The notes under the pieces were generated by a model that did no database searches, was not told the DNA's origin, and saw only the letters and a list, made by a program, of their open reading frames with translations. DNA of 64,000 bases from Candidatus Taylorbacteria bacterium RIFCSPHIGHO2_12_FULL_45_16 (GTDB taxonomy: Bacteria; Patescibacteriota; Minisyncoccia; Phycocordibacterales; PALSA-1337): assembly GCA_001821055.1 (NCBI GenBank), contig MHRT01000005.1, positions 43,533 to 107,532 of the forward strand, written 5' to 3'. A program made the position numbers and the translations under genes. Positions 28,055-33,750 of the stretch are shown piece after piece. Numbering within the stretch: the stretch's first letter is position 1; each line of letters opens with the position of its first letter.

Positions 28055-29329
28055 ATGGGAATGCGAATATTTATGAAAGATATTATCCACACAATCTCAT
28101 ATGCCGTCATTGGTATCATAACGCTTATACTTATCTGCGGTAGCGTTGTTTTGAACCCAAATCAAGCACGCGCTGATTACGGCTATTATGGTACTCCGAC
28201 ATACGATTATGATTATTCATACAACCGTCATTCTCAATATAATAACAACGGCCCGTTGCAGGTCTCGTGTTATCCGATGCCACTCTCGGCTCGTACAGGT
28301 GAATCCATTAGCTGGGTCGCTTCCGCTTATGGAGGCAACAATTCCTACTATTACACCTGGACGGGAACAGACAGCTTGTCTGGCTACGGATCTTCTGTAA
28401 GCAAAACTTACTATTCTTCTGGTTACAAAAGCGCCAGCGTGACGGTCACCTCCGGCGGGCAGACAGTTTCCAAAAATTGCGATGGTATAGTCAACGTCTA
28501 TGGTAATTCAAATTATAATTACGATTACAACTATAATTACAATTATTACCCACAAAATTATAATTACTATTCCCCATTGAGTGTCACATGTAGTGTCGGT
28601 AGCACCTATACGAATAGTGGCAATTCAGTAACTTGGAATGCCTATCCCTCCGGTGGTAATGGTTCGTACAGCTATAGCTGGACCGGTACCGATGGTCTCT
28701 ATGGGTCAAGTCAATCAGTCTATCGTACCTATTCGTATCCCGGCACGAAAACCGCTTCCGTCACTGTCTATTCAAATGGCCAGTCTATAACGCAGTACTG
28801 CGGTTCAGTCAATGTCGGTGGCTATGGATATGTTAATTACAACAACAACAACATCAACAGCAATAATAACGGTCTTAGCATTGCCTGTTATTCGGATCCA
28901 ACTACTGTCCGAGTCAATCAGCCTGTCACATGGAGATCTGAAGTGACCGGAGGCATCTCTCCGTACACATATTCATGGACTGGTACAAGTGGTCTTTCAG
29001 GTAGCGATAGTTCGGTCATCAAATATTATGATACAGTCGGTGAAAAGAGTGCGGTCATCACTATCAGGTCAGCTGATGGCAAGACGGCAGCGAGTGCGTG
29101 TTCCACAGCACTGACTGTTCGTAGTGCCTCCGTGGTCACTCCTACGCTGCCGGCAACCCCAGCACAACCTGTAGTTCAACCACCTGTCCAACAGCAAGAT
29201 GAGAACGCTTTGTCAGCCGCTGCTCTCTTCTCTCTGAAAAATGTTCCTTGGGGATGGGTCGCTATTATGATTATTCTGGTTCTCTTTGCAACGGTTGTCT
29301 ATCTTATATTCAATCGTCAAAAGATTTAG
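28055..29329 (+). CDS. Surface protein with three Ig/PKD-like repeats (each with a Cys pair), Asn/Tyr-rich linkers, a Pro/Gln-rich stalk and a C-terminal TM anchor
   Basis: N-terminal TM/signal segment. Three repeats of ...SCYP/TCSV/ACYS...WTGTDGL...C... separated by NYNYDYNYNYNYY tracts. C-terminal hydrophobic helix. Confidence 0.6.
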   Translation: MGMRIFMKDIIHTISYAVIGIITLILICGSVVLNPNQARADYGYYGTPTYDYDYSYNRHSQYNNNGPLQVSCYPMPLSARTGESISWVASAYGGNNSYYYTWTGTDSLSGYGSSVSKTYYSSGYKSASVTVTSGGQTVSKNCDGIVNVYGNSNYNYDYNYNYNYYPQNYNYYSPLSVTCSVGSTYTNSGNSVTWNAYPSGGNGSYSYSWTGTDGLYGSSQSVYRTYSYPGTKTASVTVYSNGQSITQYCGSVNVGGYGYVNYNNNNINSNNNGLSIACYSDPTTVRVNQPVTWRSEVTGGISPYTYSWTGTSGLSGSDSSVIKYYDTVGEKSAVITIRSADGKTAASACSTALTVRSASVVTPTLPATPAQPVVQPPVQQQDENALSAAALFSLKNVPWGWVAIMIILVLFATVVYLIFNRQKI

Positions 29330-29789: not shown

Positions 29790-30128
29790 ATGGCAACAAC
29801 CACAAAGTTCGTCGGTGACGATTATGAGGCTGCCTACGCAAAAGTACTGGGCGGCACGGTGAATGGGGGACTCGGGGATGGTGGCAGAGATGTCATCGTT
29901 CCAGAGATCGGTGGGGTGCAGGTGAAAGCCTCCTCCGCTGGTGCCAAGGAATTCTTGGCAGTCTCATTGAAGCGGAAGCAGTTCATCCCTCTTTGTGTTG
30001 GCGAGCCCAGCACGAAGGAGGAAGTCCTGGATTCCCTCAAGAAGTTCGGAGCGTGGGTCGGGAAAGAGATTCCCAACCGCGCAAAGCTTCTCGCCGGCAT
30101 CTCGCAAATTCGCTTGACGCTCATGTGA
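29790..30128 (+). CDS. 112 aa hypothetical protein, GC-rich. A possible restriction-endonuclease-like small fold was considered but cannot be supported.
   Basis: ORF with GDGGRDVIVPEIGGVQVK. No confident family assignment. Confidence 0.4.
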   Translation: MATTTKFVGDDYEAAYAKVLGGTVNGGLGDGGRDVIVPEIGGVQVKASSAGAKEFLAVSLKRKQFIPLCVGEPSTKEEVLDSLKKFGAWVGKEIPNRAKLLAGISQIRLTLM

Positions 30129-30293
30129 CTACAACCAGCGCCCGTCTCGAGTGATCGAACGGGCGCACAACATTCGCCAAGAAAGGAGGTACCTGCAAAA
30201 ACCAACTAACATCGCGCCCAGCCGGAAACGGTTGGGCGCTTTCACATCCCAATGGACTTTTCCCGATTGAATTTTAGTGCAAATGTGGACTTC

Positions 30294-32048: not shown

Positions 32049-32219
32049 GGATAATACTATAGCAACTTTTTGTCAGGCGAGGGAGTGGGTTGACATACTA
32101 TTATTATTATGCTAGTAATTATACGGGTTGTTCTCAACAACTGAAACGATCATATTTCCCCCAAAAACTTAAAGTAAGGGAAGCTTGGTCACAACAAAAA
32201 CAACAAACAACGGTAAGCT

Positions 32220-33377
32220 ATGAGTATAAAACTGCTGAAAGCCGCGATTGACATATTCAAACTCCCGACGACTACAAAAACGGAGGAGATTATCATCCTG
32301 CGGGGTGTGGTTGATCCTGAGTCACTGAAAGAAATCAAGGTCGACAAGTACCAACGTGAGGTTCTGTCGTCGGCAAAAATCAAGGCTTTGATGGTCGCGC
32401 TCGAGTCATCGAAGGTTCCAGACATCGAACTCGGTATGCGTGGCGAACGGTATCAAGTCCGAAAGCCTGACGGCGAGGAAGTTTACTTTCTCCAGGATGA
32501 CGTATTCGTCATTGATGGTCTGCAACGGATAACAGCCGCTCTGAAGCTTCTTCAGGAGAAGTTCGACTGCAAACCTCGCATCGGTGCTGTTGTCCATTTT
32601 TCCACGAGTTTTGACTGGGAGCGAGAGCGTTTTCGTATCCTGAATCAAGAGCGCACAAAACTCGACGTCAATGTGTTTCTGCGTAATTTGCAGACCGATA
32701 GTGAAGCGATTGACATGATTTTTCGTCTCTGCAACGATTCGTCGTTCATCCTTCAAAATCGCGTCAAGTGGTCGCAGAACATGCTCCGTGGGCAGCTTAT
32801 TCCTGCCCTGCTGTTGTGCAAAGTCACTGGTGTGTTGCACTCGAGGTTCGGCCCGGGCCGTACCAGCAGTTGTCACGAACTGGCGTCCGCTCTGGATACG
32901 ACCATGAAGACCGTGGGTCGTACTACCATGCGCGATAACATCAAGACTTTCTTCGAGGTCATCGACGAATGCTTTGGTGTCAAACGGATTGTGATGGTGC
33001 ATGCGGCGTCCTACATGCGCAGTACATTCCTGTTGTCTTTGGCCGATATCTTCACCAATCATACCGACTTCTGGCGCGGGACTCGACTTTTCGTCGAACA
33101 AAAGTTGCGGTGCAAGATCGCCAAGTTCCCAATCAATGATCCGGAAATCGAAAGGTTGTCGGGTGCAGGAGGTCAGGCGCGTGCGATCATGTACGAGATC
33201 ATGCTCAAGGCGATCAACAGCGGCAAGCGTAAGAAGCGGTTGAAGGGGGTTGATGGTCTGAACCCTGCAAAAGATACCAGCGACAGTGGTGACGACGGTG
33301 TTACCATTCCAGAAGCCCCGGCTCCAACCACAAATGAGAGTTCTGGTCGGAAAACCTTGGCTCGTATGGGCCTGTAA
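32220..33377 (+). CDS. ParB/Srx-fold DGQHR/DUF262-like domain protein (DndB-like), with a basic low-complexity tail
   Basis: KYQREV...FVIDGLQRITAALKLL resembles the F/YQR...IDGQ(H/Q)R(L/I)T motif of the DndB and DUF262 (GmrSD N-domain) families. GC-rich. Precedes a 91 aa ORF and a terminator. Confidence 0.5.
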   Translation: MSIKLLKAAIDIFKLPTTTKTEEIIILRGVVDPESLKEIKVDKYQREVLSSAKIKALMVALESSKVPDIELGMRGERYQVRKPDGEEVYFLQDDVFVIDGLQRITAALKLLQEKFDCKPRIGAVVHFSTSFDWERERFRILNQERTKLDVNVFLRNLQTDSEAIDMIFRLCNDSSFILQNRVKWSQNMLRGQLIPALLLCKVTGVLHSRFGPGRTSSCHELASALDTTMKTVGRTTMRDNIKTFFEVIDECFGVKRIVMVHAASYMRSTFLLSLADIFTNHTDFWRGTRLFVEQKLRCKIAKFPINDPEIERLSGAGGQARAIMYEIMLKAINSGKRKKRLKGVDGLNPAKDTSDSGDDGVTIPEAPAPTTNESSGRKTLARMGL

Positions 33378-33389
33378 TAAGGAGGAAAT

Positions 33390-33665
33390 ATGAGTCAAAA
33401 ACTTACGATTGAAGAGTTCACTCTTCTTGCGGTAGATAAACTACCCAAGGGTGATAAACAGATGATTCATACCGTTTACTCTGGCTTCAACGAAGCTTTC
33501 CGGGAGTATTTTCCTGGCAAGGATCCTGTTGCTGAAGTTAACCAACTGGCCAAAGAAGGGAAAATCAGTTTCCGACTGTGTCGGGGTGGGGCGATCATCG
33601 CCAAGCCCGGGGTAATCGAATCAGTACCGAAATCAAAGGACACCTTACAGAAGATGGGCGTTTAA
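33390..33665 (+). CDS. 91 aa hypothetical protein, co-transcribed partner of the DGQHR-like gene
   Basis: Starts 13 nt after the upstream stop, preceded by AGGAGG. A terminator follows directly. Confidence 0.4.
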   Translation: MSQKLTIEEFTLLAVDKLPKGDKQMIHTVYSGFNEAFREYFPGKDPVAEVNQLAKEGKISFRLCRGGAIIAKPGVIESVPKSKDTLQKMGV

Positions 33666-33688
33666 GTGCATAGCCTGTCACAATCAAC

Positions 33689-33724
33689 AGCCACCCTCGC
33701 GCGAGCGTCGGTGGCTTTTTATTT
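33689..33724 (+). terminator. Intrinsic terminator closing the two-gene GC-rich islet
   Basis: GCCACCCTCGCGCGAGCGTCGGTGGC hairpin followed by TTTTTATTTT. Confidence 0.6.
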
Positions 33725-33750
33725 TCCCACTTTCCCCTTATACTTATCCC

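Follow-up and report, generated by a model that had tools for sequence, protein, structure and literature searches.

Predicted coupling of a ParB/Srx-fold protein and a small winged-helix protein by a common C-terminal peptide in Candidatus Taylorbacteria

Two genes on the + strand lie between thrS and rmuC in a genome of Candidatus Taylorbacteria, a Patescibacteria lineage. The window, that is, the whole 64,000-nucleotide (64-kb) stretch of DNA analyzed, has thrS upstream of them on the − strand and, downstream, rmuC followed by rplU and recR. The large gene, A3C79_00445 (32220..33377), encodes a 385-aa DUF262/DGQHR-like protein of the ParB/Srx fold, as judged from the ORF, its AF2 model and its UniRef name, ‘DUF262 domain-containing protein’. 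The small gene, A3C79_00450 (33390..33665), encodes a 91-aa protein predicted to be a winged helix. They show the signs of an operon; the gap is 12 nt (13 nt in the preliminary description), the small gene has its own AGGAGG ribosome-binding site (33380..33385, + strand; read from the sequence, 4 nt before the ATG), and a terminator is found only after the second gene. This intrinsic terminator (33689..33726, + strand; detected by RNA folding and as inverted repeat I1) consists of a 7-bp GC-rich outer stem and an inner 3-bp stem and then UUUUUAUUUU, and its hairpin (33689-33716), with the U-run after it, folds strongly (dG −21.2 kcal/mol, z = −3.59). The two ORFs, the ribosome-binding site, the strong terminator and the flanking genes are thus as first described. 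A hairpin resembling the terminator follows the large gene in L208, a related locus.

A candidate promoter (32090..32119, + strand) with a −35 element, TTGACA (32090-32095), and a −10-like element, TAGTAAT (32113-32119), was read from the sequence upstream of the large gene, and alignment with the syntenic loci L075 and L065 shows that TTGACA and its surroundings are conserved. A consensus promoter scan made no call at this site, and its assignment to the two-gene operon is uncertain because thrS is divergently transcribed from the same 171-nt spacer. The leader/intergenic region also contains a short inverted repeat, GGTTGT-TCTCA-ACAACT (32126..32142), overlapping a promoter-like site on the thrS strand. 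The repeat is kept in the window, L075 and L065, with one compensatory change in L075 (GGCTGT...ATAGCC), and is known from this alignment only, since it is too short for the repeat search, which at seed 6 found no inverted repeat in the upstream spacer. It is possibly an operator or an RNA hairpin. Rfam and tRNA scans of the locus gave nothing relevant.

The pair was initially taken for a GC-rich islet, a view that the composition contradicts. GC and GC3 are 0.510 and 0.606 in the large gene and 0.507 and 0.622 in thrS, with a GC of 0.502 in dnaB, and the GC of the small gene (0.460) equals the window gene mean (0.462 ± 0.039); both genes are indistinguishable from their neighbors. The large gene has an intact ORF, which is the same in contigs of several assemblies. 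Near the locus, Dnd, Dpd, Ssp and HNH genes are all absent.

The AF2 model of the 385-aa protein (pLDDT 89, pTM 0.80) has a ParB/Srx alpha/beta fold. The N-terminal ParB/Srx domain (about aa 25-190; 32292..32789, + strand), predicted to bind NTP, carries YQR at 32349-32357, DGLQR at 32514-32528 and FxxxN at 32631-32645. It is followed by an all-helical C-terminal domain (about aa 196-345; 32805..33254, + strand), delimited by AF2 secondary structure at high pLDDT and by conservation, which ends in a conserved basic motif, INSGKR(K/T)(K/R)RL. Next comes a disordered acidic/proline-rich linker (aa 346-375; 33255..33344, + strand; pLDDT < 50 for aa 354-370), of which neither length nor sequence is conserved across the large family, and finally a C-terminal tail, GRKTLARMGL (aa 376-385; 33345..33374, + strand), recognized as a common peptide motif by a motif survey and an ORF scan.

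The KYQREV and FVIDGLQRITAAL motifs of this protein, noticed at the outset, were confirmed. The motifs of the DUF262/DGQHR branch are a QR pair, a DGQ(Q/H)R pentapeptide and FxxxN (Machnicka et al., 2015, PMC4619093); two of the three are exact here and the pentapeptide is a variant with L, not Q, at the third position. Y44-Q45-R46, F138 and N142 are invariant in the large family, as are D, G, Q and R of D99-G100-L101-Q102-R103, the L being present in at least 90%. Profile searches gave only matches below the curated cut-offs: PF03235 (DUF262/GmrSD_N) scored 20.3 bits against a gathering threshold of 33.2 (E = 6.3e-4), and TIGR03187 15.7 bits against a cut-off of 58.85. PF03235 is matched at E <= 0.01 by 9 of 39 family members (best 4.5e-6), and the homologue P0066 carries a precomputed match. 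PF14072 (DndB) does not match the protein at E <= 1, PF02195 and TIGR00180 gave no match, and no HTH family matches the helical C-terminal domain; the family profile found nothing in PDB sequences even at E <= 10, and PHROGs and NCBIfam gave weak matches only. The overall architecture resembles that of GmrSD_N-only and DndB-like viral proteins of 300-400 aa in BFVD (TM ~0.5). Placement in the DUF262/DGQHR branch, as first suggested, is thus supported by fold and motifs. The protein is also without a recognizable effector domain, as had been stated. The family comprises 520 clusters at 50% identity, and among the best 150 of these no extra domain or nuclease fusion was found, all being about 270-420 aa long with one full-length match; a DUF1524/HNH domain is absent from the large protein, its neighbors and the same 150 clusters.

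For the 91-aa protein, Pfam, NCBIfam and PDB sequence matches are all absent. Its AF2 model (pLDDT 82) has the topology H-E-H-H-E-E plus a C-terminal helix, and the top Foldseek matches in PDB are nearly all winged-helix proteins (LOTUS, TubR, FoxP3, DsrD, MecI/BlaI and Fur), at a non-significant level (best E 0.081, TM ~0.5); topology and matches together suggest a winged helix. The small-family profile matched only designed helical repeats in PDB, which was regarded as spurious. The most conserved surface is formed by beta1-helix2, not by the putative recognition helix, and so would suit the binding of a protein or ligand no less than that of DNA. The family is unannotated and widespread. 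Its hundreds of members are spread over phyla and occur in CPR bacteria, in Nitrospirota-type and actinobacterial bins, in an Asgard archaeal bin and in some phages. About 80 of 90 small-family loci have no ParB-like neighbor and lie beside housekeeping genes, and homologues on five viral contigs have no credible ParB-like neighbor either. A dedicated effector, one of the possibilities first raised for the 91-aa protein, is not supported in a family of this kind. A DGxxR-matching ORF near the small gene in L200 is on the opposite strand and looks spurious. In L132 and in L140 a distant member of the small family follows an rmuC-like gene, two loci being too few to interpret.

Both proteins of the window carry the peptide [AT]L-x-[KR]-M-G-[LVI] near the C-terminus, in the small protein as the tail DTLQKMGV (33633-33662, + strand; ORF translation), and in both the tail region has low AF2 confidence. 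Among 269 large-family proteins the tail is found in four, exactly those with the small gene downstream. It is also found in all 11 full-length members examined of a separate ParB_N family, ‘DGRHR’, which aligns with the large family only over a 23-residue DGxxR core. Seven of these 11 are paired with the small gene, directly or through contigs of matching length, none has been shown without one, and where a contig shows neighbors the DGRHR gene immediately precedes the small gene in every case. When 10,510 ORFs were scanned without bias, 90 were found to end in the motif, 82 of them from the small family and eight of the ParB fold; each of these eight precedes a small gene by less than 200 nt, and unrelated carriers were absent. 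A natural control is provided by L208, which has the same thrS-X-rmuC-rplU-recR synteny and lacks both the small gene and the tail. The motif is often followed by 1-20 further residues.

The peptide is native to the winged-helix small family, where it is conserved in many lineages having no ParB-like neighbor. The tails of the two ParB-fold families (G[KR][KR][AT]LxRMGL) are closer to each other than to that of the small protein ([DE][TA]LKKMGL), and on the core tree the large proteins that bear the tail are polyphyletic. Recent DNA duplication found no support as the source of the large protein's tail, as the tail-coding stretches are alike only as far as the amino acids require. A literature search for the motif and for ParB-like and winged-helix pairing in Patescibacteria found nothing relevant.

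Pairing of a ParB-fold gene with the small gene recurs in eight further loci and involves two different ParB-fold families. The pair is found at thrS-rmuC in L065 and L075 and in a Mur ligase context in L066/L067; spacing in the other pairs of the large family is 2-15 nt, and in L076, which has a DGRHR protein, the genes overlap by 4 nt. In L122 a DndB-family protein precedes the small-family gene, and in L201 a different ParB-like gene occupies the same slot upstream of it. The proposed coupling of the large gene to the 91-aa gene is therefore upheld by occurrence of the pair in three contexts, tight spacing and the common peptide. About 100 large-family loci have no small gene, and therefore the large protein functions without the small protein as well.

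The slot next to thrS is variable, with rmuC on the other side where that flank was recovered. Nucleotide identity among relatives is 50-65% in the cassette versus 74-89% in the flanks, and other occupants of the slot in relatives are a PIN-domain gene pair and a PRiA4_ORF3 gene. Related genomes keep the large gene beside thrS, once (L208) without the small gene, so that the former is a resident of this slot; the gene had been called standalone, which holds insofar as it has no effector gene close by. Outside the Taylorbacteria-like clade the large family is not linked to thrS or rmuC. Around 52 large-family genome loci there are no conserved neighbors except tandem paralogues, and Pfam assigns 144 of the neighbors to unrelated ordinary cellular genes, with no defence islands. 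Insertions of large-family genes in cellular genomes are solitary, and their distribution is patchy with variable neighborhoods. Forty homologues lie on IMG/VR phage contigs in phage replication/recombination modules, their neighbors being exonuclease, Sak4/RecT/ERF, SSB, RusA, terminase, portal, methyltransferases and other ParB-like genes. Because the thrS-rmuC slot is variable and relatives of the large gene lie in phage replication modules, the cassette is accessory and probably originated from a mobile element.

Orphan ParB-fold proteins are NTP switches with links to mobile elements; among DndB-like proteins, one binds ATP and GTP (PMC12704722). We give about even credence to the locus being an accessory pair of an NTP switch and a DNA-binding adaptor, by analogy with KorB-KorA. 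The large gene would then supply a nucleotide-binding, DndB-like ParB/Srx protein that lacks a nuclease domain and whose C-terminal domain is helical and basic, and the small gene a winged-helix protein belonging to a widespread family. The two would be coupled through the short near-C-terminal helix, which in the lineage of the window may have become attached to the ParB-fold protein behind the disordered linker of about 30 residues. This peptide may act as a docking motif, received either by the winged-helix domain or by a partner that both proteins share. A receptor restricted to these ParB-fold proteins is excluded, since about 80 of 90 small-family loci have no ParB-like neighbor. The winged-helix protein would serve as a DNA-bound adaptor or co-factor for the NTP-driven ParB-fold switch, for which the parallels are KorA/TrbA capturing the ParB-family clamp KorB and DndB as an NTP-binding, DNA-binding regulator. 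The physical interaction, binding of NTP and DNA and the biological role of the pair are what we infer from this arrangement. More tentatively, the small winged-helix family could be a hub that is addressed via a portable peptide of about eight residues, captured by at least two unrelated ParB-fold NTP-switch lineages in CPR bacteria either independently or by 3′-end exchange. If true, this would define a previously unrecognized partner-coupled class of ParB-fold proteins, with ‘tail mimicry’ distinct from ParA-ParB and KorA-KorB coupling.

The preliminary description had raised the possibility of a minimal defence or DNA-surveillance module. In an anti-phage module of this kind the DUF262-like domain would sense modified or foreign DNA and hydrolyze NTP, like the N-domains of GmrSD, BrxU and SspE, and the ParB/Srx domain or the small partner would be the effector. 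Kinship in fold and motifs to DUF262 domains found in type IV restriction enzymes would suit such a module, and nuclease activity is possible for ParB/Srx domains (PMC4619093). The cassette being the divergent part of an otherwise conserved locus, the PIN-domain and PRiA4_ORF3 genes in the same slot, the patchy distribution, the variable neighborhoods and the tandem paralogues are also in line with it. However, PADLOC-DB v2 has no model significantly matching either protein, the best for the large protein being unrelated ones (E = 0.0075 for a CARF model and 0.031 for NsnA) and the small protein matching none; no nuclease fusion or extra domain appears in the best 150 of the 520 clusters, and the 52 genome loci are flanked by ordinary genes. 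The small partner comes from a family of housekeeping contexts, and the large family, with about 45% identity across CPR phyla, is well conserved, unlike typical fast-evolving sensors. Homologues in phage modules suit a role in phage DNA metabolism, partition, regulation or counter-defence at least as well. Of the findings that the preliminary description itself had named as refuting, two were made in full or in part: composition does not set the genes apart from their neighbors, and relatives keep the large gene beside thrS, once (L208) with no small gene. A defence module is thus possible but unsupported, and seems unlikely to us; the evidence points to a ParB-fold switch and a DNA-binding adaptor, and at the level of sequence the common tail points to an undescribed docking link, not to a demonstrated defence system.

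It is likewise rather improbable that the two proteins have no physical partnership and that the tail is a generic signal used by each alone, whether as a membrane-targeting amphipathic helix (as in MinD and Noc), for docking to a hub such as a ParA/MinD-type ATPase, the sliding clamp or RNA polymerase, or as a protease recognition element. The tail is short, basic-hydrophobic and placed after a flexible linker, and it may resemble the membrane-targeting sequence of MinD and the clamp-binding C-terminus of Pol IV, QLVLGL. Its conservation in small proteins that have no ParB-like neighbor calls for a universal receptor. It is also loosely like the ParA-binding peptide [LFI]G[KR]G[LFI] (PMC12704722). 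Nevertheless, a generic signal cannot explain why the only carriers outside the small family among the 10,510 ORFs are ParB-fold proteins directly upstream of the small gene, nor why the tail is lost exactly where the small gene is absent at the same locus, in L208. The residues that often trail the motif argue against a strict C-terminal degron.

Quite improbable is a large gene that is a domesticated or remnant phage gene (moron) with no present cellular role beyond the phage one (partition, regulation or counter-defence) beside a small gene that is merely a resident chromosomal neighbor: the 40 homologues beside replication/recombination and structural genes on phage contigs, the solitary insertions in cellular genomes and the replacement of the upstream ParB-like gene in L201, consistent with the small gene as the anchor, would agree with it, but other phage genes, an integrase, an adjacent tRNA and direct repeats are all absent at the window locus, composition is that of host genes, the ORF is intact in several assemblies, the two genes have moved together to a different context (L066), and a tail gained from the partner implies that function alongside the small protein was selected for. 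Partnership with ParA was rejected, as the deviant Walker A motif (KGGxGK[ST]) is found nowhere in the window, which also tells against docking of the tail to a ParA-type ATPase.

ParB-fold proteins have recently come to be seen as general NTP-driven switches, and the partners and outputs of the orphans are the question of the field (PMC12704722). For two orphan families the locus gives a candidate answer, in which a small winged-helix protein would be the partner, joined by a docking peptide recognizable in sequence, a simple handle for experiments and genome mining. It also gives a first functional lead for the small family and a further example of a variable cargo slot in reduced CPR genomes, and it corrects the first reading, as there is no compositional islet and as yet no evidence for defence.

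Among the closest known systems, DndB/DGQHR proteins (PF14072, TIGR03187) are like the window protein in size (about 350-380 aa), N-terminal ParB/Srx domain, helical C-terminal part and lack of a nuclease domain, and in having the QR pair, a DGxxR pentapeptide and FxxxN; BFVD fold matches of the window protein include ‘DNA-sulfur modification-associated’ proteins. DndB is a homodimeric DNA-binding repressor (PMC4507180). The window protein differs in having DGLQR instead of DGQHR, in scoring below the TIGR03187 threshold and in not matching PF14072, no dndBCDE, dpd or ssp cluster surrounds its gene, and a winged-helix partner and a common tail are not known features of Dnd systems. From the type IV restriction enzymes GmrSD, BrxU, SspE and DndI it is set apart by a PF03235 score below threshold, by the absence of a fused or adjacent DUF1524/HNH nuclease (best 150 family clusters) and by a location outside defence islands. 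Canonical ParB proteins (Spo0J/Noc) are approached by the alternative DGRHR family (about 298 aa), which has Pfam ParB_N and a central HTH, whereas the window protein has no PF02195/TIGR00180 match, no HTH domain and no N-terminal LG[KR]GL peptide; unlike ParABS, the window locus has neither a parA neighbor nor a ParA-type Walker A. Like KorB-KorA of plasmid RK2, the locus places the gene of a ParB-fold protein beside that of a small protein of predicted HTH type. In RK2, KorB is bound by a C-terminal helix that KorA and TrbA have in common (PMC13584720). The element common to the two small proteins there is a dimerization domain, whereas here it is a peptide of about eight residues on a ParB-fold protein and a small protein, the latter being a predicted winged helix without sequence homology to KorA or TrbA. 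The likeness to KorB-KorA is one of genes; CTP binding, CTP-dependent clamp formation with sliding on DNA and interaction of the two proteins would be further parallels.

The two proteins considered here, A3C79_00445 and A3C79_00450, come from a Candidatus Taylorbacteria genome (Patescibacteria/CPR) and are encoded between thrS (upstream, minus strand) and rmuC (downstream). The anatomy of this two-gene locus was drawn correctly in the preliminary description, save that the gap was given as 13 nt. On the plus strand, an ORF of 385 aa (32220-33377; the large gene) is followed after 12 nt, as read from the sequence, by one of 91 aa (33390-33665; the small gene), AGGAGG (33380-33385, plus strand) lies between the large-gene stop codon and the small-gene ATG at 33390, and a hairpin (33689-33716; fold -21.2 kcal/mol, z = -3.6 versus shuffles) followed by UUUUUAUUUU is located downstream of the small gene. 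The GC-rich block in which the pair had been placed was not borne out; the large gene (GC 0.510, GC3 0.606) is near thrS (GC 0.507, GC3 0.622) and dnaB (GC 0.502), and the small gene (GC 0.460) equals the window gene mean (0.462 ± 0.039). The GC-richest stretch near the locus (0.565) is occupied by a 112 aa ORF (29790-30128, plus strand), which matches no family of Pfam, NCBIfam, PADLOC, or PHROGs, and a longer antisense ORF overlapping it (29834-30205, minus strand); coding on either strand is putative. Another antisense ORF of 330 aa (32406-33398, minus strand) spans nearly the entire large gene; nothing supports it as a gene, and it is probably a by-product of sense-strand codon bias. The spacer between thrS and the large gene (32049-32219) shows about 70% identity over three genomes, being better conserved than the large gene, and holds TTGACA together with a short inverted repeat in which one change is compensatory. 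Regulation of thrS, of the cassette, or of both may reside in this spacer, and the conserved putative promoter and repeat may belong to thrS, which is divergent and shares the spacer. Farther upstream, a 424 aa ORF (28055-29329, plus strand) encodes a hydrophobic segment at the N-terminus, low-complexity stretches rich in Tyr/Asn, three repeats that contain ...Y(T/S)W(T/S)GT.(S/G)L.G...S...Y...A.VT(V/I)...C, and a C-terminal hydrophobic helix; from its sequence, this product looks like a cell-surface repeat protein.

The large protein, already labeled DUF262 in UniRef, gave weak but concordant matches in searches of four HMM libraries: Pfam GmrSD_N/DUF262 (E = 6e-4; 20.3 bits, below the cut-off of 33.2), TIGR03187 DGQHR (E = 0.01), and a PHROGs ParB-like partition protein (E = 0.0016), with no credible match in PADLOC. 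GmrSD_N was independently matched by 9 of 39 homologs (best E = 4.5e-6). The DGQHR/GmrS domain has been defined through three motifs (Machnicka et al., PMC4619093), each of which has a counterpart in the large family; two are exact, Y44-Q45-R46 and F138...N142 being invariant, and the pentapeptide is present only as a variant, DG-L-QR. C-terminal to this N-domain, a helical domain closes with a conserved basic INSGKRxRRL motif, and the linker that follows (aa 346-375; disordered, pLDDT about 50) leads to a tail of ten residues. When 1.84 billion representatives were searched exhaustively with a profile, a compact family emerged (520 clusters at E ≤ 1e-3, 360 at E ≤ 1e-30). The best 150 of the 520 clusters are about 270-420 aa long, the shortest apparently truncated; nearly all of them give a single full-length match, and none shows a nuclease fusion. 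Matches in BFVD are mostly viral proteins of 300-400 aa, GmrSD_N-only or "DNA-sulfur modification-associated" (TM about 0.5). Therefore, the large protein belongs to the DUF262/DGQHR branch as a DndB-like member that lacks a nuclease, and the sub-threshold HMM matches, motifs, and BFVD folds uphold the initial assignment to this branch.

Forty homologs of the large protein occur on IMG/VR contigs beside PD-(D/E)XK exonucleases, Sak4/RecT/ERF annealing proteins, SSB, RusA, the large terminase, T4-like portal, HNH endonucleases, DNA methyltransferases, and other ParB-like proteins, genes that together form a phage module for replication and recombination. In 64 species-representative genomes with the large family, the neighbors are ordinary cellular genes; the small gene, thrS, and rmuC are never adjacent, and the only conserved neighbor is a tandem paralog in 8-9 loci. 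This second family copy follows on the same strand in 8-9 of 52 genomes (among the comparison loci L001-L064, e.g., L032 and L004). The large/small pair recurs in the thrS-rmuC slot of loci L065 and L075, and within a distinct, Mur-ligase context in L066, L067, and L079.

The small protein has no sequence match in Pfam, NCBIfam, or PDB. Its model (pLDDT 82) shows an H-E-H-H-E-E winged-helix topology with a short C-terminal helix, and nearly all of the top Foldseek matches in PDB were winged-helix domains (LOTUS, TubR, FoxP3, DsrD, MecI/BlaI, and Fur), none of them significant (best E-value 0.08). The family is widespread: a metagenome scan found 438 relatives. Bins from which members derive carry the labels Nitrospiraceae, Actinomycetota, and Freyarchaeota, and beyond CPR the gene resides in housekeeping contexts, with nadD, proA, queC, a selA-like gene, and hemC among its neighbors. 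The small protein is not a dedicated effector, one of the roles first considered for it. Within loci L068-L155, nadD lies directly downstream in 16 and the selA-like gene downstream in 13, queC and proA lie directly upstream in 8 each, and SnoaL-like lipoprotein genes are flanks in 24; in L132 and L140, the small-family gene is just downstream of an rmuC-like gene.

The slot next to thrS is filled differently among related genomes. Nucleotide identity between the window and L075 is 74-83% in thrS and 72-89% in rmuC, versus 50-65% in the cassette (about 32150-33700). L208 has the large gene alone, and L201 has an 86 aa gene, a DGRHR ParB_N gene, the small gene, and then an MGMT-like gene. In L075 (3177-3861), a 65 aa gene and a 180 aa PIN-domain gene that overlap and resemble a toxin-antitoxin pair follow the large/small pair, and in L065 (2180-3708) these two are preceded by a 109 aa ORF and by a gene of the PRiA4_ORF3 family; the window has none of this cargo, and its slot is free of any tRNA, integrase, or flanking repeat that would mark it.

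The main new finding of this analysis is a short C-terminal tail, [AT]L-x-[KR]-M-G-[LVI], shared by the two proteins, which end in GRKTLARMGL (large) and KDTLQKMGV (small). "ALKKMGL" is the near-universal C-terminus of the small family. The tail ends 4 of 269 large-family proteins, exactly those four with the small gene downstream, a co-occurrence count that, like the others here, is drawn from related sequences, so that a supported phylogeny alone would remove the concern over kinship. The 40 phage copies all lack both the tail and a small-gene neighbor. L208 serves as a natural control: the order thrS-X-rmuC-rplU-recR is kept and thrS is 87% identical, the small gene is absent, and the large protein is tailless. 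In L076, L077, L078, L080, and L201, a different ParB-fold protein (about 298 aa, with ELIDGRHR and a central HTH; a Pfam ParB_N match is precomputed for several members) precedes the small gene on the same strand, the two genes overlapping by 4 nt at one extreme and lying 45 nt apart at the other. G[KR]xALxRMG[LV] closes each of the 11 full-length proteins examined in this second family, and one distant relative, which lacks the DGRHR motif, has neither tail nor small-gene neighbor. In profile-profile comparison, the two ParB-fold families align solely over a 23-residue DGxxR core (22% probability). Gene calls in the fetched loci came from a greedy caller, which missed genes under long antisense ORFs in L078 and in 12 of the 64 genomes, and the unbiased tail scan therefore used all ORFs. 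The 2.33 Mb of DNA fetched contain 10,510 complete ORFs of 60 aa or more, of which 90 end in L-x-[KR]-M-G-[LIV]; 82 encode small-family proteins, the other 8 encode ParB-fold proteins and lie upstream of a small gene at a distance below 200 nt, and no unrelated carrier was found. In an NJ tree of the core domain, built without support values, the tail-bearing large proteins are non-monophyletic, and the concern over kinship is reduced because the carriers are polyphyletic and a second ParB-fold family is involved. The tails of the ParB-fold families (G[KR][KR][AT]LxRMGL) are closer to each other than to that of the small protein ([DE][TA]LKKMGL).

Two further arrangements were observed around the small family. 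A conserved gene of 85-109 aa without Pfam match, whose products have ...VTFSLS.W... and ...F.KGWRA... in common near the C-terminus, precedes the DGRHR ParB_N gene (L201:2356-2616, L076:163-492, and L077:4696-4953), and this version of the module therefore comprises three genes (86 aa, ParB_N, and winged-helix). On a 3.1-kb metagenome contig (L122:168-1664), a DndB-family protein (368 aa, DGQHR; Pfam DndB, 36.8 bits versus a cut-off of 29.1) with no obvious tail is encoded directly upstream of a small-family gene, a third ParB/Srx type adjoining this family.

On the best-supported reading, the operon is accessory and probably derives from a mobile element; it would encode a ParB-fold switch that binds NTP and is coupled, through a short docking helix, to a winged-helix adaptor. 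The large and small proteins would then interact. Since the small family keeps the tail in lineages without a ParB-like neighbor, the tail must be received either by the winged-helix domain or by some host factor that is universal. A defense role, as first proposed, is a less probable alternative, to which the variability of the slot, the neighboring PIN gene, and descent from DUF262 lend some plausibility. For the switch-adaptor operon, binding to DNA and what the pair does in the cell are inferred.

Structurally, the large protein is closest to DndB-like proteins. DndB itself acts as a repressor that binds DNA as a homodimer (PMC4507180), and binding of ATP and GTP has been reported for a DndB-like protein (PMC12704722). 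The latter survey was seeded on PF02195 and mentions neither DUF262, GmrSD, nor winged-helix partners, and the large family and its partner therefore fall outside it. The closest working analogy for the pair is KorB with KorA/TrbA, small HTH proteins whose common conserved C-terminal helix binds and locks this ParB-family clamp (PMC11790492; PMC13584720).
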